Source: Psilocybe cubensis (lineage: Eukaryota). From it: a stretch of 64,000 nt of DNA. Position 1 is the first letter of the stretch. Each line of letters opens with the position of its first letter. The position numbers and the translations under genes were made by a program. The stretch is taken from positions 3,162,001 through 3,226,000 of the forward strand of contig CM038998.1 in NCBI GenBank assembly GCA_017499595.2. The letters run 5' to 3'. Positions 3,859 to 57,511 of this stretch are shown here, in pieces. The notes under the pieces are model-generated. The model saw only the letters and a program-made list of their open reading frames with translations, was not told where the DNA came from and did not search any database.

Positions 3859-5156
3859 CTAAAGCTCGTCCATCCGTTGCGAGCTGCTTCTCCCCACCAG
3901 CCAGCCCACCTTGCTTACCCAGCTGTCCCGGATTCCCCTCATCACCTCTTCAGACACACCAGGCGCCTTCGCATCCACCATCGCGTCCAGCGCGCGCTCC
4001 CAGCCCGTCACCGTCTCCCTTCCAAACATACCCCCCTCTCGGTTCACGACTTCATCGATCTTGTCGACCCATGTCTTCCACTCCTGCGTTAGCCGTGGGA
4101 CAATCATCGGCGCCAGTTCAGACAGTGTAAGAGCCGGCTGGTTGATTATCTGATTCGTCACTGCAGCAAGGAAGAGGAAGGTTTCCGAAGGATGGAATTT
4201 ATCCCTGTGCAATCCCTGGATGGTGGTCGCCGAAGTCGTCTGATTGCCGGGAGACGAATCTGTCGTCTGTGTTGGTGGAGGTATGCATGAGAAGTAGGGA
4301 AAGTATGACATGCAGGTTGATACGTAATCCGCAACGTGGGGACGCAGCCGAGAGATTATATATGAGTCGCGCATGACGGGTTGTCCCACAGGAGACGATG
4401 AAGATGTGGGACCAAAAATTGACTGGGGAGCTCGTGTCGACCCAAAGACGGAAGGTCCTTGTGAAAACGTTGGTGTGCTGGAGTACGGATATGCATCTCG
4501 CAACCGCTTGGCTGCTTGAGCCAATACTTGCTCAGCAGATTCGAGAGTCGGTCGGGGAATTAAAGGAAGGATTACAGACTTCAACGAAGGCTGAGTTTGA
4601 AGAAGGGAAGAGAGAAGGGGCAGCAATGATTGAGGAGGGAGGCTAGCTGCAAAAAAACAGTAATGAGCTTTACGTTTCTCTCAAATTCACAGTACAAGGA
4701 ACACTAACCTAACAACACGCCAATGTCAACGTCGTCATCGTTTGAATCTTCAGAGTTTCGCTTGTCTTTGGAAGATGTGGCATCTTTGGTGGCAGCAGAT
4801 TCCGATGGATTGAGGACCCGAGCACGTTTTGGCGCTGCTCGTTTGGGACGCTCGGGTGTAGGACTTCTGTCCATGGATTCATCGCGGGAAAGAGAGCGTC
4901 GCGGATGCTCTGCTTCATCTTCGGGATCATGTCTCCTCTTCTGAGGTCTATTAGACGTCGACTGAGTTAGTGAGGAAGCAAGCTGATGAAAAGCCGCAGG
5001 ATTTGTGTGCCCTGGAGTTGAAGCACCCCAGCCTGTGGCAGTACTCATGGAGGTTGAAGGAGAAGGACCGAGTCCAAATCCAAATCCAAAAGATGAAGGT
5101 GTGTGAGGCACTGGTCTTGGGTGAAAGTCGGTATGCGGATAAAGAACATTGGCCAT
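3859..5156 (-). CDS. STS1: Nuclear proteasome tether Sts1/Cut8 family protein
   Basis: Two exons (intron about 4646-4706); basic NLS-like KRR...PKRAAPKRAR followed by DIGVLLASLPP..LLPLLSSLLQTQPSLKSVILPLIPRPTLE, typical of the Cut8 domain. Confidence 0.8.
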
Positions 5157-5251
5157 CGTAAAAGAGTCGTTAGTTTGAAGGTGGATGTGGTAGGAAGAGA
5201 AAGGTTGTTCGACCTAGCCGAACACAGTGTCTGTTACACTTTTGTCACGGT

Positions 5252-5297
5252 CCACCGTGTGGTCCAAGTCACGTGAATAGGCAATAAACCTGCCCTA
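5252..5297 (+). promoter_or_regulatory. Three-part promoter module CCACCGTG / TCACGTGA / AAACCTGCCCTA in the divergent STS1 - snoRNA-host gap
   Basis: CCACCGTG 5252-5259, TCACGTGA 5269-5276, AAACCTGCCCTA 5286-5297; the same three words occur in the same order upstream of GID8. Confidence 0.6.
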
Positions 5298-5406
5298 TAG
5301 TAGCGCGTTCAAATTTAAAAAGAGAAAAAATCTTCACGTTACGGCTTGACCACTTTCGTTGTTGTTGTTTCCTTTGATTCTTTGGTATGTCCACGTTTCC
5401 CTTTGT

Positions 5407-5493
5407 TTCAAAGACGAGACCAAACGAATCGCTACTTTGAAGCTGCTACTACGGCTCATGAGCTTTATTCATATACCCAAATTTCTGATTTGA
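5407..5493 (+). ncRNA. Box C/D snoRNA, dual guide: snR50-type (25S Gm867 equivalent) plus snR40-type (25S Um898 equivalent)
   Basis: C box AAGACGA 5411-5417; guide GAATCGCTAC 5426-5435 + D' TTGA, complementary to LSU GUAGCGAUUC; guide TATACCCAAATT + D box CTGA 5485-5488, complementary to LSU AAUUUGGGUAUA. Confidence 0.85.
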
Positions 5494-5601
5494 TCCCCCC
5501 CGCGTGTTCAAAACTTCTGCTAATTCATTTTATCTCAGTCTTCTATAACAATTCGATATGTATCATCCGCTGGCATAACGTGAGTTTCTCTTCCTCTCTT
5601 C

Positions 5602-5688
5602 CACAAATGATCGAATAAAATAGAAGTCAAGCACTGACCCCGTCTAAAGGATGGGGGATGTCGATTATCCATGCTAATACTGATCCCT
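5602..5688 (+). ncRNA. Box C/D snoRNA, dual guide: snR66-type (25S Um2417 equivalent) plus snR53-type (18S Am796 equivalent, possibly also U6 A53 equivalent)
   Basis: C-like ATGATCGA 5607-5614; guide AGTCAAGC + D' CTGA 5634-5637 (LSU GCUUGACU); internal stem CCCCGTC/GATGGGG; C' ATGTCGA; guide TCCATGCTAAT + D box CTGA 5680-5683 (AUUAGCAUGGA). Confidence 0.8.
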
Positions 5689-5892
5689 CTTCTCGATATC
5701 CTTCAAAACTTGTTGCTGACCTTTTCTTTCATTCCAGGCACCTTGCTTTTGTTGATATCGTTTTATTTCTGTGTAATTTTGTGACATTGGTGAAACACAT
5801 CCTTGTTGCCGCCGATACTTCTTGTCTGAGAGATATTCAAAATTTTATTACGATAGTATGAAATTGTAAGATAAAAGGATTTCGAAAGCAAT

Positions 5893-8739
5893 TTACAAAT
5901 CTGAAGGATATGGCCAGAACACATTGAGCAACCATAAAACAACAAAGAAAGCAAGTATTCTAACACCCAGTCGAATCGTCCACGAGGTGTTTGCAGCAAA
6001 CAGTCGTTGAGTAAAACTGTGAGAGGCGGGCTGGGATGGATTCTGTGCAAGACGATCCACCCAGCGTCCCGGCCTGATTGGCGTATCGGGCTCGACAGGC
6101 AACGGATTCCCTGATTCATCCTTGAATGTATCGTCTGCTTGGAGAGGTGACAGCGATATGATGATTTCTTGCTCATCAGCGGCCAGCGGTGTCTCGGGTG
6201 AACTTTGGGTCGGAGTCGTCGCCGGTAACTCTACCTCCCGCACTCGCGTTCCACATATAGTCGCAGTGATCTCCGCTGTAGCAAACGACACTCGATCGCA
6301 GAGGTATAAAAACATCCCCGATGTAATTACGAAGTTGATAGGCCTCCATGCTGTGCCAGGAATGACGAGCAGAATACCCTTGCTATCACCCGCTAACCAG
6401 AGGTGATATTGGATTATGAACGCTTCCAAAGAACAGTTGCCCACAAAGACAAAGGCGCGCGACGAAGCCGATCGGAGTGCGACGCTCGAATTCCGCAAAA
6501 TAACGAACGCCAGAACGGGCAGGGTTGAAACGTACGGATGCCATGAGTTGTAAGCAAATTTTGACTCCTGAAAAAGTTCGAACACGAAAAACCAAATTAA
6601 AACAAGGAATGAGAATCCGATGGATCCTTTCATTGCCCAGGGCCAGCGAGGGTGATCCACGAGGCGGTGTTCGCGAACTTTTGCTATGACCACTGAAGAC
6701 AACATCCCGACATATACAATCCAGATGTCAAGGTTGACCCTGAATGCCCATTCTTGCGACGACCAATGTATTGCGAAGACATCGTGCAGAATATTGAACA
6801 ATCCTTCGAGTAACCAACTCTTATCCATAAACCAGGTCATAAACGCTGCTGAGAACAAAATTTTCCCGACGAGAAGAATAGTGCGATCGTTGAATCGGGC
6901 CCCAGCCGCCATTGTAGCATAAACGACAATGTACCACATCGATACCAGTGGGGTAAAGTAGTACGAAATGTAATCCGTATTCATGGTGTACGCCAAAAGA
7001 ATTGTGAACAGATTCAGACGAATGAGAACCTAATAAGATGGATTCAGCGTTGGAACCTGTGTGTAAAAAGTGTCTTCTTACTTGAGCAATTCGTAAAAAT
7101 CCATAATCTGCCTTCCGCAAGTAAAAGGTAGTGTGACCATAGCCAGTCATGAAAAGATATGAAGCGACCAGCACTCGTACTGGATTATATATTCCTGAGA
7201 TCTGGGATCCTCGGAAATAATGGTAGATTAGGATGACCACTACCATATAAGATGAATTAGCATGAGTCTTTGAACACGTTCAAGCATTTGTGCTCACATT
7301 GCATCCAACCCTTCCATTCTTCTGTCTGGTCACGATTGAGGAAGCCTAGGTCGGTTTCTCCTCGTTGCATGGTGGTTAATCCAAGAGCAAGTGATGTAAG
7401 GCACAATAAACTGAATCCCCAAGGATCAAATTGCTTTTGCTCTTTCTGCCAAAAATTTGTCCTGTCTGCTAGATATATAAGGGCGATTGACGACCCAATG
7501 ATTAAAGGAGGTAATGTTTGCTGCCCCAAGAGTGCGGTTCGAACATCTCCCAGACCTGAAAAAATTAGTAGTAGCTTAATAGTGTAGGCAAAACACTTGC
7601 CTGCTGTGAAAGCCTTGTAGGATAGATATGGCCCCAATGCAAGTACCATGAACAAAAACAACAGCTGAGGAATTGATGGTAGTGGGTAACGATTACAACA
7701 TGTCCTATCCAAAGGAAAGACTTTTGGCAACTTATCGTTGCAGCTGAGGTTGATTAGAATCCTAGCTTGGACTTTGACGACAGTATCTGAGTAGTGTAAA
7801 CCGTCTTCTGTAAGTGAGTCGTCCAACATTTTGTTAAACACGAGTGGGAGCGCAACTTCGCCACCAGGGGCTACGGAGAACATGTGCCCCGAGCTATCTG
7901 TAGGTGGGTTTATGCGATGGAATAGATCTGAGTTCATGGCGTCGATGTCCGAATGATGGATGGACAACGCTCTGTCCATGGAGAGCTTCGATACCGAGAC
8001 TTCTTCCACGGGTAGTATAATGACTTCGTCTGCAGGTTTACTGAAGGTCGACAACGAGTCAAAAATTCGTTCCATGTTACTCTCCCAAGCAGATATTCCT
8101 CCGGATGTGTTTGCATAGCGTAGATACCAAAGGCCAGATCCCAATACTAGCATAGCAGGTCGCATAGAATTGGTAGTCGCCGTACCGGCTAACACTTGTT
8201 GAGTGTAAGTGTTGTTGAGGTAGGGATCCCATATGAAAGTGAGATTAGTAGCATGTTGGGACTGTAGGGTATGATCCGCATGCTTTAGGGTATCATCCGT
8301 CGGAGCTGAAGGTAGAGTCGCATCTAAGGTTCTTGCAGTTTGGAAGAAAAGTTTCCGGGTAACAGAATCTCCGATGAATATGATTTCTCTCGACTGAAAG
8401 CAGGGGGCAACCTCGTCTTCGGAGTAGGGATACAACATGCACCCTAACTCACTCCATAAATCTCCTGCACCGGCAAGTAGATTAATATGAACTTACCGTT
8501 TGGTTGCCAGTTCTGATAGTCAGAATCTAACCAACTTCCGTCGTTCAGCAATGCCTCACAATGCATTGGGTCTGCCCATCCTGAAAGTAAAGTTCAGCGT
8601 CATGACGCGACGATGTCATAACATATCACCCACCAAAGAAGAGAAGATGCGTAATTCCAGAGAAACATGCCAGGAGGATGAAGAAAATGCCTAGGAAGTG
8701 TGGCCATGCTGGATTTAATGTAGATTTGAACGACGACAT
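5893..8739 (-). CDS. CAS1: Cas1-family O-acetyltransferase (SGNH-like domain plus 10-TM acyltransferase domain)
   Basis: Multi-exon; FIGDSVTR and DGLHY catalytic motifs, [37 protein letters not shown]; many TM segments. Confidence 0.9.
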
Positions 8740-9229
8740 AGTGTTCTATTCCCTGAGCCTGAACGCTGATTCTAACAGGCCCTCAGAAACTTGCAGGGTA
8801 TCAATGTGTGGGGTATATCTGGGGGAAGTTGGTCGTTGTCAACAGTGGGTAGGAATGTGCTCAGCATGCATAATTTTGAATCTTGTTCGATTCACAGCTC
8901 CAACATTCAACGTTGTTGGAAAGATACATCGTGATTTTTTGGCAAGTCTTCCATGCTTTGGTTTCTCACGCGTCACTAACTGAATACAATTAAAAATAGA
9001 TTCAGTTTAAATAAATATACAGAGTCCGTCCGTCCGTTATTGAGTGTTTCTAAAAGTATGTAATGTAAAGAATGCGATGGTATCGAAAGTTCAATGCTTT
9101 TGATGCAAACATTAGGTAAAAGTATGGGCGTGATGAGGCAACGAAGGTGGGTAACTAAACACCAGTGTTTGAAGATCCTGACAAACCTGGTTGTCGGGAT
9201 GGTTAGTAGAGCTTTAATGTGCAAAGATA

Positions 9230-11413
9230 TTATGACAGACCAGTTCTAAAACAAGTCAATTTCAATTAGACTCAAATCTAGACGATGAAGAAGAAAACAT
9301 ACCCTTGACAGTGGTTATTCGCAGAGGACGGTATGCAAGATAAGTATCGGCATCCAGAACATGCTATTATGGTTTATGTTACTTTTAAGTAAAAACAATT
9401 ACTTAAAGGAAGAAAAAAACGTACCAGCGTATGGATCTGAGGTATAGAAATTTTTGACAAGTGCAACAAATAGAATGATTGCCAAAGGTATCGCAGCCAG
9501 TCGGAAGCCCCATGTAATGTATCGATGCCGTTTAGTGACACTGATAACTGGATAGAAGATGGTTCCAACAAGTAAACCCATCACAAAACCTCCTATGTGG
9601 GCTGAAATGCATTTCAGTCAGTTCAAAGTAAGAGTATGCCATAATAACAACTGACCAAAATTATCGACATCTAGTAGTATGGACCTGAGCAACGAATGAA
9701 ACCACATATTGATTGAAAGCGCTTACAAGGTATGTAACCAAGCGCAACACCAATGAGTAATTCGATAGTCATAAATATGAGCTGACGCGGTATATCATAT
9801 ACGGTGAATTAGGATGATCATAATATGAGATATTCGACTAACCTTTCTGACTGGGCGGTATTGAAATTTCCAATGTGCTAGAAGGTCTACCCAAGTCACC
9901 TATATAGTGGCTATATAAGAGCAATAAAGCGGATTAAAATGTTGCACGTACAGCGACGGTCCCAAAGATGGCGCCACTGGCTCCAACAGACGGCACCCCT
10001 ACCAGCGAGAAATTGCCTCCAAGAACATTTCTGGATACAAAATATCAGCAATTAGCAAAACAGTAGATTGAACATGAAGCTTGAAGAATAATTACTTACC
10101 CAAAGATGCCTGCTGCTGCGTATGTGATGAGAAAACCACCGGAACCCATTTCTCTCTCAATCTATCATGCACAATAAGGCTTAAAACACAGTTCTTCAGC
10201 GTAACATTGCGTACCTGTGCGCATAGTGTAAGCTGGGCCAGCATGTTCAGAAGAATGTGGATAATGCCGGCGTGGAGGAAAATAGCCGTCATGAATCTGG
10301 TAAAGATCAATGGTATATCAACAGCATTATGAAAGTAGAAGATAAAACCCACCGGAACCATTGGTTAGGGTCTTTACCATGAAATCCTATGAATCAATAT
10401 CTCAGTTAGATACAAGACAGCAATTATAAGCTTGCTACACACCACCAAAGCCGCAAAGATCTTCGACTGTACATACAGAAGTTGCAGGGTTGGCAGTATT
10501 GTTCATACCTGGATGAACCAGGTATCAGGCCCAAAGGATCAGTAGTCATATTGCGTCGGAATACTTACAGCCAATAAGCGTGGTTGGAGGCACCTGCTCG
10601 ACCAATTTCATACAAGGTGGAAACCGTGCCCCAACATTGATAAGGGCACTCCCTGATGGTCCTAACATAGGATTGATGGTTGGCTAACGCCATATTAGCA
10701 TTGTACCTTCCAATGATCCTGTGGAATCACACGTACCTTGAATGATATAGGACTTCCTTGCTCTCTAGAATTTAACACGAGTTCATAGACGAATACGCCA
10801 ATCATCGCAACGGTGAGAGCATATACTATCGATTTTGTGAATACACACAGAACAGGATAACTAATGGGCTTCAAACTCACCGACAAAAGGGTATTTCTGC
10901 CGACCAATTCCTCGTTTCTTGTCTTCTATCCGTTGTTCCAATGGGTATTTGGCTGAGGACATGAATTTGGATAAACCAGCCTGTTTCGAATCCAAAGCTC
11001 TACTTTGATTTTGGGGCTCCGCATACTCTACAGGACAGGTAAGAGATGGTTTAAAAGATATGGCTTAGCAGTGCACCTAAATCTTGATATCCCCCCTTTC
11101 TTCTCTGAGAAACACCGCGAACAAGAGGAGTATCAGGCGAATCATCCATATGTTCGTGAAATCTTTGGGTAGGCTCGTTGTCAGAATAGCTGGTAAGCCT
11201 ATTAGCGGGATCACTAGAGCTTGTTGGAATCATCCCAATGTTTCGTTCCACTTTCGATGGATCAAAACTTTCGCTCAAGTCGCGTCCTTTGTTATTGTCA
11301 TAAACATCTGTTACGTCGGTTGTCCTCGAAGTTGAAGGTTGAACTTGGTGGGCGCTGTCGTATCCAAAGGTATACGGATCCTTCTCTACAGAAGTTCGCT
11401 TTGGAGAAGCCAT
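9230..11413 (-). CDS. Rhomboid family intramembrane serine protease
   Basis: Many exons; FLHAGIIHILLNM, VGASGAIFG (about 9961-9990), DNF/AHIGGF, Cys-rich C-terminus CSGCRYLSCIPSSANNHC. Confidence 0.9.
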
Positions 11414-11883
11414 GTTACGGGGTGCGCGATATAATCTCTGCAAAAAAAAGTAGTATCGCGCAAAAGCTTGTAGTATTAATGAAATGGAGAATAGTAGTGG
11501 GAAGTAGGAAAGGAAGGAAGTTTGAAGGATGTCCTGAACTTGATGGTAGTGGCCAAGCACTGGCAGGCTGTACAGCCATACTTGGGCGTTCTGGCTTACC
11601 AGATTGGGCTAACGCTGCAACGCGCAGTTTATTATGACGACAACGCGGTAATTTTAACCCGCCATGGCATAACTGGGCCCTGTCTGGCCCTGTTCATGCC
11701 TGTTTCCCCTCAAGAACTTGGTGGCTCAAAGTTATGTGTATATTCCCAATGTGTTCCCCTGTATATAGAAAGCATATGCAACAGACACCTACTACTGAGT
11801 GCTAGGTATGGTCTAAATAGATATCATAACAGTCCATGATGTAAAGTTACAGATGTGCAGTTAATATCAGCATAGAAATATGG

Positions 11884-14800
11884 TTACTGACGAAATACGT
11901 GCGAGTCAAATGAAGTTTCTATAGGTGTCGTCTCACCCATACTTTGCCTTCCCTTTGTTCTACCTGATGGTTTGCGCGTGAGTGGAGTGGCATGGCTGTT
12001 GCCACTCTCAAGTGCTTCATCGCCTTCAGGTTCTTCGGATTCTTCAGGTGGAAATGATCGAGGCGCGTGTTCCTGCTCTTCCGGTTCATAATCGTGATCA
12101 ACGGGTCGTCCCCAGCGCGAGGCAGATCCAACCCCATCTACCCACTTGAGTGTTCCGATGCTCACTTCCCGAACTTTGCGGTTTCGTGATATCCAATGTA
12201 AAGGTGTCGCTCCAGTGCGACCTTCCTCAGACGAAGAAAAGCTTTGGACTGATTCTCTTTTGGTATCTTCTAAGACAACTTTTTTTGCAGGAAGCGCTGC
12301 CAACAAGCGAGGATCGGAAGGGAAGAGCAATGGTAACATGTGTCTTGAATCTAATAGTTCACCTAGTGCTTGTGGGGGGTGGACGGGCTCCCACAAAGAT
12401 ATGTCAGCCCGCTTGTCGAATAGAATGTCGATGTTTTGTTGTGGTGAAAGAGCCTCGACTGAAGGGGCTATCGAAGGTGTTGTCGACGAGCTTTCCGCTT
12501 CATTGACAAGAGAAGAAATACTGCCTTCTTGATCTCGATCTCTATCGCGCTCAGTAATCTTGCGATGAACATCAAAACATGTTCAGACTAGATTATTAAT
12601 TTGGCGTACCTCTTTCCTGATGGCCTCAACTCCTAATTTTACTCGATGTCTTTCCCAGTCTTTTTGAAGTTGAGTGAGATACTGTATGCATTCTTCAGTC
12701 ATGCGCCCCTCATTAACCTCGTATTTATAGTCACGAACTGCCCGCCGCATCTGTGAAACGCAGTCTAGTATAAACATAACGAAAGTACGATGGTACATTA
12801 CCTGCAACGGATTGATGCTTTTCATTGTTTGTATAGTTGCCACCAAGTCAGGGAATTCAGCAATGGAAGAAAGTCGCTGAGAATTCTTGGTCAGACAAAA
12901 CTAAGAACTTGGCTCCCAATAGTTTCTTTGGCTTACTTGAAGCCAATTTAGTAAGTCTCTGACAGGAGCGAAGTGGGATTGTATTCCTGGAGGAATACCC
13001 ATTTCCTCGATCCATTCTTCTATAACAGTCAAGTTCATACTAATTTGGACTGCCCTGGATCTTTGGTAGCTAGTAGTTAGTCATCCTGATGGTTACAGGC
13101 GGATGCGCACGCACCTGCATATGTATTTCTTGCGGGTGATAACACGATTGAATATTTCACCTGTAAGATTATCAACAACCCTGTTTCTACCTGTTTATGG
13201 TGACCTTACAAGCAGTCCAGTACATAACCTGGGACCATAATTGTGTTATGATTGCTGGATTGATGTCGGACAGTATCAAGAGCATATGAAGAGAGGTGAG
13301 AAATGATGTTAACTCGAAAGGTGATGGTGGGTGTGACTCTAGGAAGACGGATGAAAGAGGAGGTGCAGCGGATGAAAGACCTCGGGCTCGGGTAATAGTT
13401 TGCCTGAGTGAGGAATACCCTCGAGACCCAGATGAAGATACTGTCGACTGACTCTGAGACGGAGAGAGTGGTCGATGGTGGGGACTGGCTGGCGTAGGTG
13501 AAGGTGGAATTGGATTTCTCCCAATGGGAGAGGAAGGTGTCTTGCGTTTGCCTGCAAATGGTCGAAGGAAGGACCATTCGGATTCGAATTGAACAGCCTC
13601 AAGCTCCGAAGGTACTGGTGTATAAGACAGAATGGCGCTGTCAAGTAATTGGTCTATACGCCGTTCTGCGAATCTTATGATAAAAACTACGAAGGTAATG
13701 GTAAACGAATATGTGAAAATGTATCAATCAGTAACTCACCGAAAACGGAATTGATGACTTCTTCAATCAATTCGAATGAGCCTAGCATTTCGCATGCTTC
13801 ATTTATTGACGTATCACACTCCAGAAGGTGTAACCAGACAGTAGTGTTGTATAGCCAAAACACTAAACACGATAAATCTTCAGCCCGATTCTGTATATGT
13901 GAGAGATGAGAAAAAGTTGGGAGAGTCAAACAAGCACGCACAAAAAATGTCTCCTCAATCGCATCGGTGGCGCCAATAATAAGATCTTCTAGCCAAGTAT
14001 GATCACATGTTAATGCCGCAAACCTTGCAAGTAAATATAGTGTATTGGCTGGTGTCGAATCCTTGAATGTAGGTTGATAATTAGTGATGAGTGATTCGAA
14101 TATCTGTGCCAAAAGAGGCGGTGAAAATACGAGCATCGACGAGTAATCTGGACGGGGTGTCTGAATTCATTTGAGCTTGAAGAAAGGCAGACATGAATAA
14201 TTGTACTGACATATATACCATCGTCCTCCTCCTCCTCTTCATCGGAATCAGACTCTTCGTCAGAGATATCCGAATCTTTGCCCCACCAATCCGGATTCAC
14301 GCCCAGTATTTTGCCTACACCTTCACGTATTTCTTTCTTGTGGCTTTTCTTTCGCGACCGTTGCTCGAGTACTCTGCGCCTTTCCTCCATACGACCGCCT
14401 GTCCACCCCTCTCCTCGCATAGCTTCTTCCAGTAATAGAGCAACGTCTTCCTTCCCAGGTAATGTTGAATGAGCAGTAACAATATCCAGAGGGGTTAGCT
14501 TCCTTTCCGTCACGGCGAAAGGAGAGCACCCGTGGGTCATTAAATATGACACAAGCGTAGGGGGCGATAAAATTGCAGCATAATGTAAAGGTGTCCACCC
14601 GGCTAGCAGACGTATATGTATTAAGATCGACTATATGTCTGTGAATCAAATGTGCGCACCTTTATCTGCAGTCATATCAGCGCCCTGTGAAACTAGCAGA
14701 CGAACACACTCCTCTCGTTCAATGTCACGATCAGAATCCCCACCAAATCCACAGATAGTAAGACTGATGAGATTAACACCATCTTCATCCCTCAATCCTA

Positions 14801-15041
14801 AATTGACGTGGGCTTGTGCTTGAGGATCAGTTAGTAGATGTTGGACAACCGTGATGTCACCAAAGGCACAAGCACGAGTCAAGCAATGGGCAACAAGCTC
14901 TGCCTTCTGCGATGGATCGAGTCCAGAGTTGGGTCCAAGCTGCTCCGATATCTGGCTGACGGTAGGGTATAAGGGGTGGAGGTCTGGTTCTGGAGTCAAA
15001 TCGATTGGTTGCGCCGATACAGCTGGCATTCCCGAGCCCAT
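11884..15041 (-). CDS. Ankyrin-repeat and DIL (dilute) domain protein
   Basis: Multi-exon; ankyrin-like ACAFGD.., GADMTADK, LTPLDIV; DIL-like QLWSQVMYWTA/CEIFNRVITRKKYIC/RSRAVQISMNLTVIEEWIEE; start could be 15029. Confidence 0.8.
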
Positions 15042-15481
15042 GCAACCCAATAATCGATTGCTCGTGGATGCGTGAAGGATAGATGACCCCTACTGGATGG
15101 TTTAACAATGTATGACTATAAGCCAATTATTCTGATGAGTCTGGGGTTGCTGTACCGCGCAGAAACGCGTCGTCACGAAGTACGTTCGGACTGTTGGAAT
15201 ATTGGTGCCGCCTCGTTTGCCTTAGGAGAATAGATCGGTGGGACCTCAATTAAACTGACTTCAGTCCGGAAAGTGACAAAGGTGGCTGACAGAATACAGT
15301 ATTATGGACCACTGCAGACTGATGAAGCTAGAGGTTAAAACGGTTGGGGAGGTATTTCAACTTGCAATTTATGACAACTAGTAATCCCGGTTGCCGAAAA
15401 CAGCCCTGATCGAGTGACTGTCAGATTTACAGCTCGACCAAAATAAAATTCTTCCGCATACCCCCACCAACTGTAACTCTC

Positions 15482-16298
15482 ATGCCCCCCAACAAACGTC
15501 AAAAGCTCTCAAAACCGGAAGAAAAAGTCTCCAACGATGAAGAGTCTCTATCTGGCAATGAATCAGAAGTTTCCTTCGGCGAAGATGAAGAAATGGACAG
15601 TATCTCTGGCTCAGAGAGCTCTCAACCTGATGAAGACGACGAGATTGAAGGAATGACCCGACAAAAATCGAAACAAACGTCGAAACGAAAAATCAGAGCG
15701 ACTGCTGGTACAAAATTCGGCGCTACACTACAATTCTTGCTGAACACCGAAACACCGTCTACCTTGCCATTGTCTCTCAAGCCATCAATAGCGCGTAAGC
15801 GCAATGATGAAAAACTGGAACAACGGGCGAAAAAGGTCCTGCAGGTGGAGAAGAAGGAAAAAGAGGACAAAGCGAGAATAAAGGATGTTATTGGCGGTTG
15901 GGGTGGCGAAAGTGAACGAGCTCTGCGCAAAGTTGCACAGAGAGGTGGTATGACGCCAAATTTTTTTAACACCTTGAGATCTTTGACGCGATATTCTTCT
16001 GCAGTCGTAAAATTGTTCAACGTAATTCAGCAATCCCAGGCTTCCATCACAGCTGCAACTGAAGACGCAAAAGCTAATCGCGGTAGTGGAAAACCAACAT
16101 TGCCTGCGCCCATGATAGAAACCAAAGGCAAAAGCAAAGGGAAGAATAAAGATAACATCATTGGAAGAGGAAAAGAAAGCAAGTGCCTTTCCAATTTGAC
16201 CCTCTTAAACATATTCTTAACGCTTAAAATCAGGTACGGTTGACAAGGACGATTTCTTCAATATGATTAGATCTGGCGGAGTTGTCTCGAAGGCGTAA
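15482..16298 (+). CDS. RRP15: 60S ribosome biogenesis protein Rrp15
   Basis: Acidic and Lys-rich N-terminus; ERALRKVAQRG/VVKLFNVIQQSQ signature; two introns, the second probably GC-AG (16179-16233). Confidence 0.88.
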
Positions 16299-16711
16299 TA
16301 GTGGCATAAGATATATTATGGGCCCGTTTGTTTGGTCAGCAGGACATACTATTGAATTTTGGTGCTATTCTTAGCCATCACCTATTCTCTTTCTCAGACC
16401 ACCTTGTTTCCATCTTCTCAGCTCGTACAAGATGTCTACTGTGACTTCGTTAGAAACACAGAAGAAAACAGAACGTCGCCGCCTTTGTTCATACAACTCA
16501 TACAAAAGCCTATACATTGATGTCATCCATCGCATCACACAACTGGGGATTTCTCCTTTGGAATGATGGCTCGTCACGCCATAGCAGCCTCCAATTGCTT
16601 CAACTGCAACCACGGTCTTTAATTATTTACCAATGTCTAAACACGAGTTTCAGACAGTCTTGACTAATACAGTGAAGCTTGCTTCTTGAAACCCCCACCT
16701 ACGCCGCTGCA

Positions 16712-18456
16712 ATGGTCAACATACAGCGCCTGCTGTTCTCTTTCCTATCCTCTACACTTCCTTCTCAGGTGCCATTGCATTATGAACAGGAGGCGGTCTC
16801 TCGCAAATCTGTGGCTATTGTAGGGGCAGGAAGTGCCGGTCTGGCCATGCTGAAAACATTCACGGAATTGGATACATTTGTCAATAACAGCTGGGAAGTA
16901 GTGTTGTTTGAGGAAAGAGAGCACGTCGGAGGCGTATGGTGAGTAAACAGGCATCTATATTTTCATCTTCACTTACATCGCGTCAGGCTTCCGGATTATA
17001 ATGATGTCCACCCGCCTGAAATTCCTGAGACGCCTTTGTATCCATTACTACATACGAACACACCCGTTCCTTCAATGGCATACCCTGGGTTTCCCTTCCC
17101 ACCTGGCACACCTCTTTATCCGAGTCATGAATATATAGAAGCCTACCATCGACGCTACGCACAGCACTATAAACTATTGGACTACATAAGCTTTAATCAT
17201 AAAATTCAGCAGGCAACCTGGAGTGGAAGTCCTGAGAATGGATATTGGAACTTGACTGTTACAAATGCAGCAGGCCATATTTTTCACAAGAAATTTGATC
17301 ATCTTGTTGTTGCTTCAGGCAATCACCACATACCGCGTATACCTGTTTGGAAAGGCCAGGATAAATGGCTATCAAATGCTCCGCAAAATCAAACGCGCAA
17401 GATCCTTCACTCGGTTTATTATCGGAAGCCAGAGGCTTTCACAGGCCTGAACGTGCTAATTGTCGGAAATGGAGCCAGTGGGCGAGATGCAGCGAGTCAG
17501 ATACTTGACTTTGCCACCACGGTGAGTTTGAATGTTATAACAGCTATATTTACGTTCAGCCATTAATGATGGAGGGTAGACTGTTGTGTCCGTTAGACAT
17601 GATGGCGATCCCTTGGAGGGTGTGATCATCAAACCAGAAATATCTCACTTCACCGCGGATGAGATAGTTTTTGTCGATGGAACAACTTATTCCCCTGATG
17701 TCGTGCTGCTCGGGACTGGATACGAACAAAGGAAGCCATTCCTGACGGCGGGCGGCGAGTTGGCCGTGGACCCAGCTGCGCGGAACAATTCTGATAAACT
17801 GGTCACAAACTTGAAATATATTTTCCCGCTGTATCGTCATATCCTTTCCTTAAGCCCCTCTTATCCAACAAATGCACTGGCTTTCATTGGACTGCCAACC
17901 TTTATTGCCAATTGCCCTTCGGATATTGCTCAAAGTCTGTTTGCTGCACATGCCATAATCAATCCGTCAATTTTGCCATCGCGACAAAAACTTCTGAAAG
18001 AGTTGGAAGCATATGAGGCCTATGTTCGGGCAAACGGACGCGACCCTTACATTAATGGACATCAGATGCTGACCAAAATTGAATCGAGTGATTACCAGGA
18101 TGAACTAGTTGAATTCTTGAAAGACATGGTTTGTACAACTTTCTCGAAAGAATCTTCGCTATCAGTCAACTAATTTCATTTTCTTATTCAGAACGCGATC
18201 CCTCGCGATGGAAAGAAATTTGTCGAAGAGTGGCGTCGGGATATCTTCGAATACCAGTATCTCAAACGTGGATGGAAGCGAATTGAAGAGTTGGGCACTG
18301 GCCAGGACTGGACCAAAGGTGTAAGAACAGAGTCACAATGGGCAGACTTGATGAAGCGCGTCAATGATTGGCAGAAACGTTGGGAAGATGCCAATGGAAT
18401 AGAGTTCCGCGCCGACATGGACTTGGTTGGTTATTTTGGCAACCAGTGGACATGAT
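16712..18456 (+). CDS. Flavin-containing monooxygenase (FMO-like)
   Basis: VAIVGAGSAG FAD motif, EEREHVGGVW, YPLLHTN, ILHSVYY, LIVGNGASG NADPH motif, LLGTGY; three introns. Confidence 0.9.
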
Positions 18457-19271
18457 GATTGTTTTTATACGTGATTATATATAACTAGGATATTCCGGAA
18501 CTTGAGCGCAGGTAAACTTGCCGACTTATTCACCCCCATTGCAACCATTTGCTGCTTTTGAGGGTCCAGGCGCAAATGGTAAACACCACAGATAGTCCTC
18601 GAGGCGAACTTCCCGTTGGGGATTTCGATGATACCTAAGTGGTCGTTTCCAAGTAATGCGCTTACATATGCGCCACTTTGTGAGATGGGACCTCAATAGT
18701 CCGCAGCGAACGAGACAGACCATTCTTGGAAGATTCCGAAAGAACAAACGACGCGTGGTTGGACGGCAGCTGCACTTAAGTTGCACTAGAACCGGAGATC
18801 CATGCCCACCGACCTAGACCTGCTGTGATATACTATAGCAAGTTACTGCAGCCAGTGCCCATCGAATTAGACCAGAACTTGATGGTGCGCGCACAAACCC
18901 CTCAAGGTCGATGATATTCAGACAACGGTTGGTGTTTGTCTCCTTTGCCAGGAGTTTTATCGTGTAAAGGGGGATGACATCGCGCTCCTTTATGAAATTT
19001 ACGTTGATTGAAGAAATCAGCTGAAAGGGAACAGATATCGATACCGACGGATCAAAACAGCAAAGTACATGGAAGGTGAGGATCCTTCGATTGTTGTGAA
19101 TGCCTACAAACAGGAAGATTGAGTTGTTTGCCATGCAAAAGAGGGGGGCCGGCGTATACCCAAGTGGATAGGTTACCGTCAGAAAGGCTTCAACAAGGAT
19201 TAATTTGGCCTCTTGTGGGTGGGATATTGTTCGGCATGTTAAGACCAAGTTAACTAGTTATGTCCCTCCGG

Positions 19272-19327
19272 CCACCGTGCTCGATACTCACGTGATTCCA
19301 ATCCGCCACAAAACGAAACCTGCCCTA
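19272..19327 (+). promoter_or_regulatory. Three-part promoter module CCACCGTG / TCACGTGA / AAACCTGCCCTA upstream of GID8
   Basis: CCACCGTG 19272-19279, TCACGTGA 19288-19295, AAACCTGCCCTA 19316-19327; matches 5252-5297. Confidence 0.6.
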
Positions 19328-19381
19328 AGGCAAAAAATAATGCACAATAAATTGGCGCAACCATCTCATTCAAGTTTTCCA

Positions 19382-20520
19382 ATGGTGAGTGTATCCCGAA
19401 ACTCTGCCCAAGCTTTGTCCTAATTTGCGTACCCTGCGGCCCCAGAAGGCATCCATTCGCAAGGAAGAGTGGGAAAGGCGCCTGCATGATGTGCAAGTTT
19501 CGAAAGCGTGAGTGCCAATCTGCTGGTCTTTGTTCTGCCTGCTATGCGATGATATTCAATTGGGAATCTCTCTGAATATTCTAAAATTCAATGTAGAGAC
19601 CAATCATTGTTGTTTACTGATTCATCTTCTGTTGTTCCTGTTATGGAGTTCTTTTGTACTGACGGGCACCTTTCGTATCAGTGATTTGAACCGTCTCATC
19701 ATGGACTACCTGGTCATTGAGGGGTACAAATCAGCGGCAGAGGAATTCAGCCAGGAAGCCAATCTCATCCCGCCGGTCGATCCCGAGAGCATCGAAAGCC
19801 GGATGGACATCAGAGAAGCGCTCCAACGAGGAGATGTCGAAGATGCCATCACGCGAGTCAACGACCTGAATCCTGAGGTGTGTGATATTTTCCCATGGTG
19901 TCGAGGCAGCCGCAAAGGATTAAACCGTTTCATGCACCACGCATAAGCCCCTCGGGGCTGCTGATGATACATGTAAACCAAAACTTCAGTCTTCAATATG
20001 ATTCTGCGCTGCCTCGGGAACAAGTCTGTATATATAGAAAGAGAAACTGACGGAGCTCATTGACAGATCCTGGACACGAACCCTGCGCTGTACTTCAAGC
20101 TGCAGCAACAGAAGCTGATTGAATTCATCCGGCAGGGACAGATTGCAGAGGCGCTGACGTTTGCACAGGAAGAGCTCGCACCGCGGGGGGAGGAATCGCC
20201 CGAGTTTTTGTCCGAGCTTGAGCGGACGATGGCGCTGCTGGCATTCGACTCTGCGCCAAACGCGCCGGCAGCGATTGCGGAGCTGCTGTCGCCTGCGCAG
20301 CGGATGAAGACGGCGGGAGAAGTGAATGCAGCGATCCTGGAGAGCCTGAGCCAGGGAAAGGAGGTGAAGCTGGTTGGACTGCTGAAGCTGCTCTGCTGGG
20401 GCGAGTCGCTGCTGGAGGAAAAGGCGGATTTCCCAAAGGTGCGTAGTAGAGGGCGATTCTGGAAAATGGCTAACGGGGTGCTCGGTGTAGCTGAATGTAC
20501 TGGAGGGAACGTTGGTGTAA
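19382..20520 (+). CDS. GID8: GID/CTLH complex subunit Gid8/TWA1 (LisH-CTLH-CRA)
   Basis: Exons 19382-19384, 19446-19507, 19682-19877, 20067-20438, 20491-20520; LisH DLNRLIMDYLVIEGYKSAAEEF; CTLH/CRA LQQQKLIEFIR, ELERTMALLAF. Confidence 0.9.
19541..19625 (+). ncRNA. Intronic box C/D snoRNA, SNORD79/U79-like (LSU A in GAGAUUCCCA)
   Basis: In GID8 intron 19508-19681; C box GCGATGA 19546-19552, guide TGGGAATCTC 19561-19570 + D' CTGA 19572-19575, C' ATGTAGA, D box CTGA 19617-19620. Confidence 0.85.
19902..20016 (+). ncRNA. Intronic box C/D snoRNA, U32/snR40-like (18S Gm1271 equivalent) with non-canonical boxes
   Basis: In GID8 intron 19878-20066; terminal stem CGAGGCAGC/GCTGCCTCG; C box AGGATTA; guide CATGCACCAC 19931-19940 complementary to 18S GUGGUGCAUG; D' CATA; GCCCC/GGGGC stem; C' CTGATGA; D box ATGA 19998-20001. 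Confidence 0.78.
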
Positions 20521-20767
20521 TATAGATAATAAATGTTGTAATATAATAAATAATGATATGTTTTTTGGGAGAACGTGTGTGCCTGAGCGGCATGTGTTCT
20601 TAGGTCAGCACGGACGCATTCTCTTTGGAGGCTGAACGACGACGCCGCTGTCCTCGCACACCGTGTCCCTCTCTTCTCTACTCCCACCAGTCTCCTCCTC
20701 CTGCCCCTCCCGCCCACCCCACTTCCTCCGTCCCTCCTGGCGGTTTCTCCGTCTCCTATCTTTCTAC

Positions 20768-40180: not shown

Positions 40181-40618
40181 TTATGATGCCTTCTTCGTTG
40201 GGGTCTTCTTGGTCGGAGTTGGGATTGGAGTTGGTTCAGGGGACGGAGGTATGAATTTCTCGGCCAAAGGATGTCGTGGTTGTGTACCTCTAGGGTGATA
40301 TGGAGAGCCAGGTTTAAGAATACCGCCCTTATAAAAGCTTAGATTATTGCCCATAAACCCGACGCGCAGATAACTTACCAATTCCAATAGTTTCACAACT
40401 GATTTACTAGGAAGGGCACCGACGTTTAGCCAATGCTGGATTCTAGCCACACTCCAGCGGACTGTCCTCGCGTCGCGTCCATCAGCACCATGAGGGTCGT
40501 AGACACCCAAAAGCTCTGTGGGTTTGGCATCCCGACGCAGCTTGCTATTAATGGCTACAACGTGGAAGATCTTCCTGTGGCGGTGGCCATGCATAGCCAT
40601 TCGAATACGCATAGTCAT
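40181..40618 (-). CDS. MRPS16: Mitochondrial ribosomal protein bS16m
   Basis: MRIRMAMHG..IFHVVAINSKLRRDAKPTELLGVYDP, WLNVGALPSKSV; one intron. Confidence 0.92.
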   Translation of the reverse strand: MTMRIRMAMHGHRHRKIFHVVAINSKLRRDAKPTELLGVYDPHGADGRDARTVRWSVARIQHWLNVGALPSKSVVKLLELVSYLRVGFMGNNLSFYKGGILKPGSPYHPRGTQPRHPLAEKFIPPSPEPTPIPTPTKKTPTKKAS

Positions 40619-41072
40619 GGTGGGCGAAAGGTTGAAAGTTATTACAGGAAAGACTTGGATAATTGGTGAATGGTCGAAAAAGTTCCCAAAGTCCTTAGAA
40701 TCAGATCACGTGCCATAAGAAATATTATATATGGTTGACCTGTTCAGCGTCTCTGGAAGTGGAATATATCACTAGAATGACTAGATTGGTTTTGATAAAG
40801 TGGAAGATAATATGGCGTGTAATTAGTCCTTTGATTGGCTTTTTATTATTGGATGATTTGTACTGTTTCGGATATCCGACCATAATAAAACAAAAGGGGG
40901 AGCGTCCATTCGGCTTCAATCCTTCGCCTTAAATACAATGGAACAAAAGCAATACAGAGGTAGAAGATCATCGATGATAGGTGCGATGATTGACACCAAG
41001 GATGGATACGATCCCTTACGACTTCGTTGCTGCTTCGCCAATTCATATCGACCTGGAGAATAGGACAAACTT

Positions 41073-53084: not shown

Positions 53085-56000
53085 CTATGTGTCATTGTCA
53101 AAAGGATACTGAATTGACATCATGAGTACGCGATACCAACTTGGAGTCAAATCACAAACATACCTCAAACGCTTCTGGAGGTTCTGCATCAGGCGCACTC
53201 TCATCCAAGGCGATGTGACGACCCGTAGGCTGAGGCGCCGGAGCGTTGGTATTACTTGGAGGAGCAGCCTCAGGGGCAGCTGGCACCGCAGGCGCTGTTT
53301 CAATTTCAATAAATTCAGCCTCCTCATTCGGTCGAAGGTCGGAAAGAATAAGAATGCCACCACCGCCAGCGTATCTTTCTGAGCCCAAACCTAAAGCAGA
53401 AGATACGCTTTGAGCAGCGACTGCTTTTCCAGATTTTGATAGTGTCGTTTTTGATGAAACAGCTCTTACGGGTTGGTATCTGCCATCGGTTGGGAATGTG
53501 ATATAGGCTAGTTGGCTAGGCGTCACTCGAGAAAAGTTGGGACGCAATTCAGAAGAAGGCTCTGCCTTCTTCTGCCGTGAACTAGAAGCTGTCGCCTTAT
53601 TGTCATCTGCAAGGTTGGAAACTGACTGAATGATTGGTGACACGTCCCCATCTTTGGGTGACACATCGTCGGGTTTCATTTCAACGTCTGCATCTCCTTC
53701 CTGTTTATCCTAGAGGTTCGTATTAACGAGATTGTCCGTCAGTTCTGCAGAAAGTCCTCACCAAATCCATCGTATCTCCTGGAGTAGCAGCTTTCTTCTT
53801 TTCTCTTGCTTTAACCTTGGCAGTAGTCGAAAGCACAGCTGTGGCAACTTTTGCAACTGTTTCCTTCTTAGGAGGTTTGGTTGAAGAAGGATAGGCGAAA
53901 AGACTAGGCCTGGCGTTGGAGATGTACTCGAATTTGGGCGCCTATTACCATGCATATTAGTTTTAATGTATTGATGTAAGGTAAGCAATTTACCTTCAAG
54001 TCACCATTTAAACCAATGATACCGGTAGGGGAGAATGCCAAGCAAGCACAATGTGCCAAAGGATACCAGTACCAGAACTGGCAGAATAAGACCATACCAA
54101 CAATCGCGCTGGTATTGGTGCTTCCAGCACGGCTCTGTAAACTGATGGTCACATTCCTTCCTCCAGCATCAATAAGACCTTGTCCAATAGCTGCACCAAA
54201 GCGCGCCATTGGGTCCTCATGTTTATCAGAGGTTACTTTGTTGTATTTCGCACGCGTGGGTGCGAACGAAGCCGAGGATGCCTCGGATTGCTCGACGAGG
54301 ATCATACCAAGGGCGATGAAAGCTCCTTGACGAACAAAGTCGACACTATCTTTGGTCATGGGTTCCAAAATCTCAACTGCATCCTGAGTAGCCTTCATTA
54401 ACACATCTTTAGCAAGTCATTTAGAGCAGTTGCTTACCGGCAGGCCAGTCCCGGCACATGCAATTCCAAGGGCAAGGGTAGCACCACATCGTACATGGGG
54501 ATTATAACTCTCGCTTAGCAATTGCACAACGCGTGGTACCTGAGCTGGATTTTTGAACAGAAGAAATGCCAATGAAGTCACAGCAGCTCGTCGAACATCG
54601 TCAGAAGTATCGGACACTGCAATATGCAAAAGCTTGCGAACAGCGTCATTGTTTGCAGTGCCTGCATAGGCAAGGGCTAAAGTGTAGACTCCACCGTATC
54701 GCAAAATGGGATCCTATAATCTGTGAATATTGATTGGTACATAGCGAAAAGAGATACAGCACACCTTCTCAGCAAGCAGGACCTTGATAATGTCGTCTGC
54801 CTCTTCCTGTCGTCCGTAAAAGATAAAGGCAATGCCCACGGCAAGACCGCGTATAATCTTTTCATGTGCAGTCTCCCTGGCATACGTCAGCATCTCGTCA
54901 ACGGGTGTTGCAGACGCTGTGCCGAGCATTACCAAGCCCATCGCAAAACCTGACGCTTCACCAGCAACGGCTGAATCGGTGAAGAGAACAGTTTTCAAAT
55001 CTTCAAATGCCTCCATACTTTTAGAGCCCATAGCAGCTACGCCAAGTCCTAGAGCAGCACCGTGCTGCACCACTTCCCCTTGAGCAGCTTTCAAAGCATC
55101 TCTAAGGTAAGCTGTCACAGAATTTCCACAACCAGCGTTGATCAAGCCCAGAGCATAGAGAGCACCACCTTCTGAATAGGCAGCTCCCGCAACATTGCTC
55201 TCGCCTCCTGGTTGGGGAAGGTATGGACCTAGAATTGTTTGGCCCTGTTCGAAGTAACCTTTGTGGATGACACCCAGGCCAGCTGTTGCAGAGAACTTCG
55301 ACCAGTTTGAAGCCAGGCCGAGCCACTCCAAGTTCTCTCTAAGGAAAATGTCGGAAGTTGTCCCGGCGTGCATAAATGCATTTTGAAGGGTGAGGGCAGT
55401 GTGGTATATCGAGGATCTGGGCTCTAGTGCATCCTGAATTAAAAGTTAGTTGATACAGAAAGTAACGGTATCCAGCATCATCACCTTGGTGTTCTTCAAG
55501 ATTAAAAGATCGGTTTGGTTGTTGCGCTTGAGGAATTCACGATACAATTTGACAGATTCTTTGCCGGTCAAAATCGTGCGAAGCTTATCGTATACAGGTT
55601 TGGTTTTCTGTCCGCCAAAGATATTAGTTTGTAAGAGCAGTATGAAGAATTTAGACTCACCGTATCACCTTCTGGCAAGTCATTCCTCAAGGTTTCGAGA
55701 AAGTCTTGTGATCCTCCTTCCACCAAGTCAAAAGCGAATTGATACGCCAATAGTTGTTCAGTGGAAACAAGAGATGAGATAAAGGGTATGGTAAGGCTTG
55801 GATCACTGAGAGTAACAAGTAAGCGGGTGAGGGCGTGGACATGCGGAGATGCATCGCCTGCAGTTGGTCGAGGAAATAGAGGAAAGAGAAAACGGAGGAC
55901 TTGATCTCGGTATGAAAGTGAGAATCCGGTGTCGAGAACACCATCCATAGCGTACGATAGAAGAGATACGTCTTGTGTCTTGGAATAGATATATGAAATA

Positions 56001-56674
56001 ACATCTAGGCGGTGGGATTCTAACGCGATACCGATAGCCTTTGGAAAAGAAACTTGGCTAAGCAATACATAACGGCATACATTCTTAGAGAATCGTACCT
56101 GCTTAAACTCGCCCTCTCCGATGCATCGGTTAAAGATACCTTCAACAGTAGCTTGCAGAAGTGGGTCGATCTTCTCTTTACTGCCTGATTGCTCGGCAGA
56201 GCGTGCCTGGATGTAGCGGTCGATAGCTTTGGCTATGGTGGTGCACAGAATAAGGAACGCGGGACGAAAACGCGGTCAAGAGCTACTCACACACTATCGT
56301 CTCGATATATTCTTCTGATCCATGGGAGCGAGTCTCGTTCTGGAACGCGTTTCCTGACCCAAGTGCGAAAGAGAGTGCCTCGTCGTATTCCCCTAGGAAG
56401 TAGTAAACTTTGCTGGCAACAAGTGCAGCGGCATCTCTAGCTGGTTTAGAAAGTTCATTACTCTCATATAGAGCCTCACTGCAGTATGCGCGTCAGCACA
56501 ACTTAGTTAGAGATGGCAAATAAATGGCAATTACATTAAGGCGATATGTTCAGAGATCTCTGCCCAGAACTGTGGCACAAGTGGGCGTAATCTATCAAGC
56601 GCTAGTTCCTTGAACGTTGGATTTGGATCCTGCAGAAGGGCAAGGACGCCTGCGGCGGAGGATTGTTTGACCAT
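53085..56674 (-). CDS. RPN2: 26S proteasome regulatory subunit Rpn2
   Basis: [30 protein letters not shown] repeats [30 protein letters not shown]-terminal EPPEAFE/YPF. Confidence 0.95.
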
Positions 56675-56867
56675 GGAAATGGGATGAGAGGGAGAGATGA
56701 GTGCGTAACTGGATTTGTACAGAGGTCTAGGTGACGCGTCCTTGCACGCGGACTCATCTAATCCAAATAGACGCAAACATACGGTGTCCTCCGAAATAAC
56801 CCTTCCCGTGTCCTCCTCCTGTTCAGTTTCTCATTTAAATCGTTATCCACTTCTCTGCTTCAGGGCC

Positions 56868-57511
56868 ATGTCCTTCGCCATCCGCAACCTCTCCAGGCAA
56901 GTCGCCCGTGCGCCTTCGCGCCTCCACGCAAGGCCCCGTACTTTTGCCACTGCCGACAAGTCCGTCGCCAACAATGCTTTCGAGAAGTACCTCCAGGAGG
57001 ATAAGGCTTTGACTCACCACGCTCAAGGTGAGAATCACTATAATCAGCTATATAGCCATGCATGTTTATTATTTTTACAGAGACCACCGATCTCTGGAGG
57101 AAAATCAGGTTCGTTGCGCAACTCAGAATCCATCAGTCTAGACCGAGCCATCCAACCAGCTAACGTGTAATCAACAGCTTCTACGTGTGTATTCCAGCCA
57201 GTGAGTCTGTTATGTCTTGAGCTATTCCTCAGACCTAATTTTCTTACTCAATCTAGTTGCTGTCTGCGTTGCTTGGGTATACAACGCGGAGGTTGAGCAC
57301 GCCGCACATATCGAACACCTCAAGCACGAGAACGGTGGAGAACTCCCCGAAACCCCTCTTTACGACTACCTTAACAGGAGATCCAAGCCCTTCCCTTGGG
57401 GAAATAACTCTCTTTTCTTCAACCCTAAGGTGGGTCCTCAATCAATTCACCATTTGTATCTTACTGATCTTTATATGCGCGCACCAGGTCAACAAAGACA
57501 TGAGCGAGTAA
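56868..57511 (+). CDS. COX13: Cytochrome c oxidase subunit VIa
   Basis: Presequence; TTDLWRKIS/FYVCIPA, YDYLNRRSKPFPWGNNSLFFNPK/VN. Confidence 0.92.

Follow-up and report, generated by a model that had tools for sequence, protein, structure and literature searches.

We analysed a 64,000-nt stretch of the Psilocybe cubensis genome (contig CM038998.1, positions 3,162,001 to 3,226,000), which we call the window. Our subject is a DNA module of three short blocks that occurs in it twice, each time upstream of a locus with box C/D small nucleolar RNAs (snoRNAs) in its introns. We lean, with limited confidence, towards the view that the module is a group of proximal-promoter transcription-factor sites serving two RNA polymerase II (Pol II) units with intronic box C/D snoRNAs, one a non-coding host (locus 1) and the other the gene GID8 (locus 2). 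The non-random signal is carried by placement and not by sequence identity. We consider the modules to be non-random because both stand directly upstream of first exons, in the same orientation, and at both of the loci where we detected snoRNAs. We infer the rest: that the words act as DNA, the proteins that would bind them, the transcription starts and the co-regulation of the two loci.

The blocks are CCACCGTG, TCACGTGA and AAACCTGCCCTA, and they occur in one order on the plus strand at 5252-5297 (locus 1) and at 19272-19327 (locus 2). At locus 1 both spacers measure 9 nt, whereas locus 2 has a first spacer of 8 nt and a second of 20 nt. The two modules have 28 identical nt, and their second spacers differ by 11 nt. 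This shift is compatible with helical phasing, which carries little weight with two cases. The central word TCACGTGA is a perfect 8-nt palindromic E-box, a T/A-flanked CACGTG, in both proximal promoters. Each module is followed by an A-rich tract, which may exclude nucleosomes or be TATA-like. The words, their order, orientation and spacers, the 28 nt, the 11-nt shift and the A-rich tracts had all been claimed by an earlier sequence-only reading of this DNA, along with a position upstream of short first exons, and every one of these claims agrees with what we found. The coordinates of the features are collected in Table 1.

Table 1. Features at the two module-bearing loci and of the genes discussed with them (positions in the window).
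Feature	Position	Strand	Remark
Cut8/STS1 gene, divergent	3860-5156	-	Pfam Cut8; confirmed by name as well
Possible fourth common word TTGTTCG, locus 1	5205-5211	+	47 nt upstream of block 1
Block 1 CCACCGTG, locus 1	5252-5259	+	exact word match
Block 2 TCACGTGA, palindromic E-box, locus 1	5269-5276	strandless (palindrome)	exact word match
Block 3 AAACCTGCCCTA, locus 1	5286-5297	+	next base T, giving CCCTAT
A-rich tract 3' of module, locus 1	about 5311-5331	+	from the sequence
Putative intron 1, non-coding host	5385-5538	+	GTATGT...CAG, consensus splice sites only
snR40-like box C/D RNA in host intron 1	5407-5490	+	Rfam 23.6 bits, E 0.018
Putative intron 2, non-coding host	5580-5737	+	GTGAGT...CCAG, consensus splice sites
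U6-53/snoR53Y-like box C/D RNA in host intron 2	about 5653-5724	+	Rfam E 0.11
Possible fourth common word TTGTTCG, locus 2	19227-19233	+	45 nt upstream of block 1
Block 1 CCACCGTG, locus 2	19272-19279	+	exact word match
Block 2 TCACGTGA, palindromic E-box, locus 2	19288-19295	strandless (palindrome)	exact word match
Block 3 AAACCTGCCCTA, locus 2	19316-19327	+	next base A, giving CCCTAA, the full telomere-type unit
A-rich tract 3' of module, locus 2	about 19331-19353	+	from the sequence
GID8 start codon, whole coding part of exon 1	19382-19384	+	donor GTGAGT at 19385 directly after
GID8 exon 2	19446-19507	+	encodes KASIRKEEWERRLHDVQVSKA, including KASIRKEEW
GID8 intron 2	19508-19681	+	contains SNORD79-like RNA
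SNORD79-like box C/D RNA	19540-19611	+	Rfam 19.5 bits, E 2.7, below threshold
GID8 intron 3	19878-20066	+	contains box C/D RNA at 19955-20058
RPN2 proteasome gene	about 53100-56830	-	upstream region without any block

When both strands of the window were scanned, each of the three words was found at these two loci only. The 12-mer AAACCTGCCCTA has no third match in the window with one mismatch allowed, and a window search that allowed 1, 1 and 3 mismatches for blocks 1, 2 and 3 found the module arrangement nowhere but at loci 1 and 2. Near-matches to two different blocks fall within 90 nt of each other at seven other places, as mismatched copies only and in the wrong order or on the wrong strand. 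The three-block pattern had no matches in a set of genome contigs that held bacteria and archaea only, a result that is uninformative for fungi.

The module ends 87 nt before the first splice donor at locus 1 and 57 nt before it at locus 2, and these two loci are the only ones in the window with detected box C/D snoRNAs. To count comparable arrangements, we defined a composite as three collinear exact blocks, each of at least 8 nt and together at least 28 nt, within a span of at most 90 nt and with a spacer shift of at most 12 nt. This stricter count replaced an earlier chain score with 6-mer seeds, which was too noisy (the pair scored 35 and the best background 27). The only same-strand composite of the real window is this module, and 100 first-order Markov shuffles have 19. 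At the shuffle rate of 0.19 per window, simple scaling yields about 2e-6 for two 150-nt intervals specified beforehand and about 8e-4 for any pair among about 28 promoters; both values come from arithmetic and not from simulation. The pair TCACGTGA-N(5-25)-AAACCTGCCCTA occurs twice in the real window and in none of 100 shuffles, for a pattern that was picked after the data had been seen.

When both orientations are counted, the real window has four records, and the average over 60 shuffles is about 1.0. One CT-rich pair (20671-20720 with 60190-60238) accounts for two of the four, having been counted twice, and a third record is the region 40550-40601 matching itself. The CT-rich tract at 20671-20720 and the AG-rich tract at 60190-60238 form an inverted three-block composite with the same nominal strength as the module, which illustrates that low-complexity sequence can yield such composites.

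Outside the blocks the two loci have little in common. The spacers are unrelated in sequence and unequal in length, and an alignment of the two 220-nt regions did not align the flanks. Exact blocks beside unrelated spacers are the pattern of selected sites and not of a decaying duplication. We rejected a segmental duplication of the two regions: the 220-nt alignment held nothing beyond the blocks and no longer repeat was found.

We found four intronic box C/D candidates in four putative introns. Three of them have guide elements that equal the Rfam consensus over 15-18 nt, with total scores below the gathering threshold. In the snR40-like RNA, the guide and D box match the family consensus at 18 of 18 nt; in the U6-53/snoR53Y-like RNA, CCAUGCUAAUACUGA equals the family consensus exactly, as does UGGGAAUCUCUCUGAA in the SNORD79-like RNA. 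The fourth, at 19955-20058, has no Rfam match; its C box (TGATGA) and D box (CTGA) are canonical and it has a 5-bp terminal stem. The claim of two snoRNA-host loci thus stands, with box C/D RNAs at both, three of them guide-identical and the fourth with canonical boxes. Across the whole window, Rfam gave no match at the gathering score and only the snR40-like match at E ≤5. A scan for the C/D box pattern recovered one of the four RNAs (19955-20058) together with many implausible matches in coding open reading frames (ORFs), and it is not a reliable census.

The gene at locus 2 has LisH and CTLH/CRA domains (Pfam) and its best match is "GID8-like protein [Psilocybe cubensis]", which bears out the earlier naming of this gene as GID8. 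Intron 1 is 61 nt long and lies between the ATG exon and exon 2. Orthologues start MPPKSSIRKEEW, and those in Galerina, Hypholoma, Coprinopsis and Agaricus begin MPPK.SIRKEEW. We consider the short first exon to be supported because the orthologue N-termini match the ATG exon plus exon 2. From the end of the module to the GID8 ATG there are 54 nt. The gene before it is FMO-like and runs in the same direction, with its 3' end towards GID8, and about 260 nt separate its likely stop from the GID8 ATG. The deposited P. cubensis GID8 model has 211 aa, begins at an internal Met (MDYLVIEGY) and runs past the last splice donor. It looks 5'-truncated, and a promoter placed by it would be off by about 300 nt.

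At locus 1, the host has no ORF that Pfam recognises among the window ORFs scanned, and we predict that the transcription unit extends over about 5350-5850. On the other side of the module is the divergent Cut8/STS1 gene. The intergenic region from the Cut8 ATG to the host donor is about 230 nt, is bidirectional and contains the module. The sequence-only reading was right to place the module 5' of a snoRNA host and overlooked that this is a bidirectional promoter with Cut8/STS1. It is possible that at this locus the target is common to Cut8/STS1 and the host, or is another one.

Host intron 2 has a further peculiarity. The D box CTGA (5716-5719) of the U6-53-like RNA overlaps CTGAC, the sole good branch-point-like word of the intron; the acceptor AG (5736-5737) follows 17 nt later. 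Assembly of the snoRNA and splicing of the intron might compete here. Alternatively, the CTGA further upstream, at 5680-5683, may mark the end of the U6-53-like RNA.

If the module does consist of promoter sites, we picture it working as follows. A Cbf1-type homodimeric basic helix-loop-helix (bHLH) zipper protein would sit on the palindromic E-box TCACGTGA, and one or two more factors would sit on the flanking CCACCGTG and AAACCTGCCCTA. The length of the 12-mer would allow two adjacent sites or a multi-domain reader, and a Myb-type reader of CCCTA(A) is one candidate. Together with the A-rich tract, these factors might keep nucleosomes out of the short intergenic region and fix the start site some tens of nt downstream. 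Both host transcripts, and hence the four snoRNAs, would then be expressed in parallel.

Cbf1 prefers a T/A flank around CACGTG. The claim of a Cbf1-type site holds in that the palindromic E-box is there at both loci; the flank preference is general background and not a result from this DNA. The Tbf1 consensus is ARCCCTAA, and GCCCTA runs on to CCCTAA only at locus 2 (19323) and to CCCTAT at locus 1. Locus 2 (TGCCCTAA) matches this consensus at 7 of 8 positions and locus 1 (TGCCCTAT) at 6 of 8, which is no better than the window background. We know of no reader for AAACCTG, the 5' part of the 12-mer AAACCTGCCCTA. Two readings of block 1 were tried and dropped. Its reverse complement has GGTGG, which resembles the core of the yeast PACE element, but the full word is missing and the region upstream of RPN2 has no blocks. 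A zinc-cluster site of the form CGG-N-CCG was given up for its spacing, which is 4 nt at one locus and 3 nt at the other.

Several observations weigh against our view that these are promoter sites for snoRNA hosts. With only two instances we have a reasonable but thin lead, and the snoRNA/ribosome-biogenesis regulon suggested by the sequence-only reading is a conjecture and not demonstrated. At least one equally strong same-strand composite was present in 18 of the 100 shuffles, which puts identity alone within chance for 64 kb. The start sites, and the position of the module upstream of them, are predictions from sequence. The module is equally near Cut8/STS1: just 95 nt separate block 1 from the ATG of that gene (5156). 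RRP15, the sole ribosome-biogenesis gene that we found in the window (ATG about 15483), has no block in its upstream region even at 1, 1 and 3 mismatches for blocks 1, 2 and 3. In addition, the detection of snoRNAs was insensitive, so that the count of two snoRNA loci covers the detectable ones only. Further hosts without the module could exist because nothing in the window reached the Rfam gathering score.

The known promoter words do not help the case either. ARCCCTAA with at most one mismatch has 55 matches in the window where 80 are expected, so a Tbf1-like match does not discriminate. The earlier reading of GCCCTA as a Tbf1 site is weak on this count, and CCCTAA is present at locus 2 only. 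The palindrome TTAGGGN6CCCTAA is missing, and CCCTA is not preceded at either locus by a partner TTAGGG or TAGGG. At two or fewer mismatches, the 10-nt Homol-E word likewise has 55 matches in the window, two at our loci and 53 elsewhere. To our knowledge, block 1 fits no factor that could be named.

The first alternative is that the module serves the protein-coding neighbours, Cut8/STS1 at locus 1 and GID8 at locus 2, as a ubiquitin-proteasome element, with the snoRNAs as passengers. Cut8 is a nuclear proteasome tether and GID8 is a core part of the CTLH/GID ubiquitin ligase, so both act in protein degradation. Both genes are backed by Pfam and by name, block 1 is close to the Cut8 ATG, and the E-box is palindromic and so usable in either direction. 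However, the order and orientation of the blocks follow the plus-strand units and not Cut8, and the upstream region of RPN2 is without blocks. The orientation and the RPN2 result weigh mildly against this explanation, and two genes are too few for a functional class. We consider it unlikely.

We would give about as little credence to the idea that these are sites of general regulatory factors, which open chromatin or insulate genes in compact intergenic DNA and are common genome-wide, with the link to snoRNAs incidental. Both modules do lie in the short gaps given above, about 230 nt at locus 1 and about 260 nt at locus 2. Cbf1 and Tbf1 are also described as generalist factors with many targets in the part of one study available to us (PMC2834713). 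Against this, the exact words are found at only two of the roughly 28 genes in the window.

Chance is a poor explanation in our judgment. A coincidence of short functionless words would account for the shuffles that produced equal composites, 18 of 100 on the same strand and about one per shuffle with both orientations, but it would also have to put both copies in the same orientation and no more than about 135 nt ahead of the first donors of snoRNA hosts, for which we calculated the figure of about 2e-6. The central block is moreover a perfect 8-nt palindromic E-box, and the modules account for two of the five CACGTG sites in the window.

It is just as hard for us to believe that the words act in RNA, inside the 5' leaders of host transcripts that would start upstream of them. 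Block 3 is only 54 nt from the GID8 ATG and the start sites are predictions, which would fit such a leader. However, the central word is a DNA-type palindrome, at locus 2 the 3' end of the neighbouring gene fills the space upstream, and we saw no common hairpin apart from the palindromic words themselves. Least credible of all is a relic of an old promoter-fragment duplication that no longer functions as a unit: the matching order and orientation of the three words would fit it, but the spacers, flanks and first exons are dissimilar, the snoRNAs belong to different families, and exact blocks beside unrelated, unequal spacers would themselves imply selection on the blocks.

We return to the reading of the module as promoter sites for snoRNA hosts, which can be extended to a broader conjecture that we think improbable as a whole. 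There might be an Agaricomycete three-part promoter code (CCACCGTG, TCACGTGA, AAACCTGCCCTA) that is dedicated to hosts of intronic snoRNAs, with a last spacer that shifts by whole helical turns, and that is read by a Cbf1-type bHLH protein and a reader of the 12-mer. Such a code would tie GID8, and perhaps Cut8, to a growth-controlled supply of guides for the modification of rRNA and U6. It would be the basidiomycete counterpart of ascomycete Tbf1/Cbf1 and of Homol-D, with a new component.

Outside the Ascomycota, almost nothing has been described of how fungi match the supply of snoRNAs to ribosome production. If the module is conserved and enriched, it would be a compact signature for finding snoRNA hosts in mushroom genomes, where covariance models do poorly. 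It would also be a data point on how ribosome-related regulons are rewired across fungi, and Psilocybe engineering would gain a short native promoter element. Without enrichment, we have an ordinary pair of promoters that by chance have a common E-box and 12-mer.

The other promoters of the window provide the background for these two. We ran Pfam on 151 ORFs (26 + 125), drawn from 235 stop-to-stop ORFs with a minimum length of 78 aa plus earlier picks, and no cytosolic ribosomal-protein gene was found among them. Only two of roughly 28 genes in the window have any of the three exact words. CACGTG is rarer than chance, with five sites compared with 11.1 expected. Three of the five are promoter-proximal, at most about 130 nt ahead of a start codon or first exon; two of these are the modules. 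The remaining two of the five sites are inside coding ORFs. The third promoter-proximal E-box, TCACGTGC at 40706-40713, stands 89 nt upstream of the ATG of mitochondrial ribosomal protein S16 (minus strand; region 40616-40713). RPN2 on the minus strand and COX6A on the plus strand (ATG about 56869) appear to form a very tight divergent pair, with starts no more than a few tens of nt apart (56830-56870).

There are also some smaller observations around the modules. TTGTTCG occurs at both loci upstream of block 1, and it may easily be a chance match. At locus 1, block 1 makes up the right-hand arm of the local palindrome CACGGT-CC-ACCGTG (5246-5259), and a second local palindrome, TGTTCG-N7-CGAACA (5206-5224), contains the common word; locus 2 has neither of the two. 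A near E-box, TCACGTTA, is present at locus 1 as well (5334-5341), on the 3' side of the A-rich tract.

Downstream of the non-coding host there is a CAS1 acyltransferase fragment (CAS1 region 5893-8492) that is 100% identical to a Psilocybe cubensis protein, with other Agaricales next among its matches. In other Agaricales, the orthologues of CAS1 and GID8 have neighbouring locus tags (D9619_003453/003458, CVT24_000448/000446, D9615_001440/001444 and AMATHDRAFT_60451/60447). This suggests that the block with both snoRNA-host loci (neighbours at 5893-8492 and 19382-20520) has conserved synteny in Agaricales.

The closest known system is that of Candida albicans. Control of its ribosomal-protein genes by Tbf1 and Cbf1 was reportedly described by Hogues in 2008, as the work is cited by others. 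According to the available parts of two papers, Tbf1 and Cbf1 govern ribosomal-protein genes and ribosomal DNA, and this is said to apply in most fungal species (Lavoie 2010, PMC2834713; PMC2607300). As in that system, a CACGTG E-box and an element of the CCCTA(A) type stand together in proximal promoters, and the genes concerned serve ribosome production; we propose generalist DNA binders as the anchoring layer here as well. The C. albicans Tbf1 element is a required palindrome, TTAGGGN6CCCTAA, in the part of the study we could consult (PMC2834713). In contrast, the module has one CCCTA, which only locus 2 extends to CCCTAA, and its CCACCGTG and the AAACCTG 5' of CCCTA have no counterpart in C. 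albicans. Our targets are also different, being snoRNA hosts in another phylum, and are known from sequence alone. We suggest that the module works like the Tbf1/Cbf1 type by analogy, and we do not file it as a member because the Tbf1 palindrome test failed and two conserved parts are unexplained. TTAGGG-binding proteins of the Myb type do occur in basidiomycetes, with Tay1 and the TRF/TBF-like Trf2 named in the accessible portion of one source (PMC7952879).

For snoRNAs themselves, Tbf1-marked promoters in S. cerevisiae are said, in papers that cite the work (PMC4138321 and PMC7952879), to have been described by Preti in 2010. Box C/D snoRNA promoters are distinguished by a single Tbf1 element in C. 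albicans and D. hansenii, and Homol-D is found in them in fission yeast (both from the available part of Diao 2014, PMC4138321). The module would resemble the Tbf1-marked promoters in its single candidate telomere-type element 5' of box C/D units and the A/T-rich stretch after it. Those promoters belong mostly to independently transcribed snoRNA genes, whereas here the snoRNAs are intronic in spliced hosts. Similarly to Homol-D and Homol-E in fission yeast, a common promoter signature would couple snoRNAs with ribosome-related genes, and Homol-E is CCCTA-rich. However, the exact Homol-D octamer CAGTCAC(A/G) is at neither locus, with four matches elsewhere in the window compared with 4.2 expected, and Homol-E fits only with two mismatches. 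A Tbf1-like motif has also been reported at Neurospora ribosome genes, as far as the available part of a 2025 preprint goes (10.1101/2025.02.27.640643).

Farther away, plants have telo-box and site II elements, and in animals, where snoRNAs are intronic in host genes, Myc E-boxes are found at snoRNA host and nucleolar genes. An E-box or a telomere-like word in promoters for ribosome production is common to these cases and ours; the kingdoms, factors and words differ, and this is an analogy only. Our literature search found nothing on promoter motifs of basidiomycete snoRNA hosts or ribosomal-protein genes, nor on these exact words, and a survey of the fungal snoRNAome does not treat promoters and host genes in the part available (PMC5824354). 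The composite had been put forward as not described. That is so for basidiomycetes and for the exact words, for which we found no report; the Tbf1/Cbf1 concept itself is published, all in Ascomycota, in the sections we could consult (PMC2834713, PMC4138321). The concept is thus already known, and the basidiomycete composite itself may be new.

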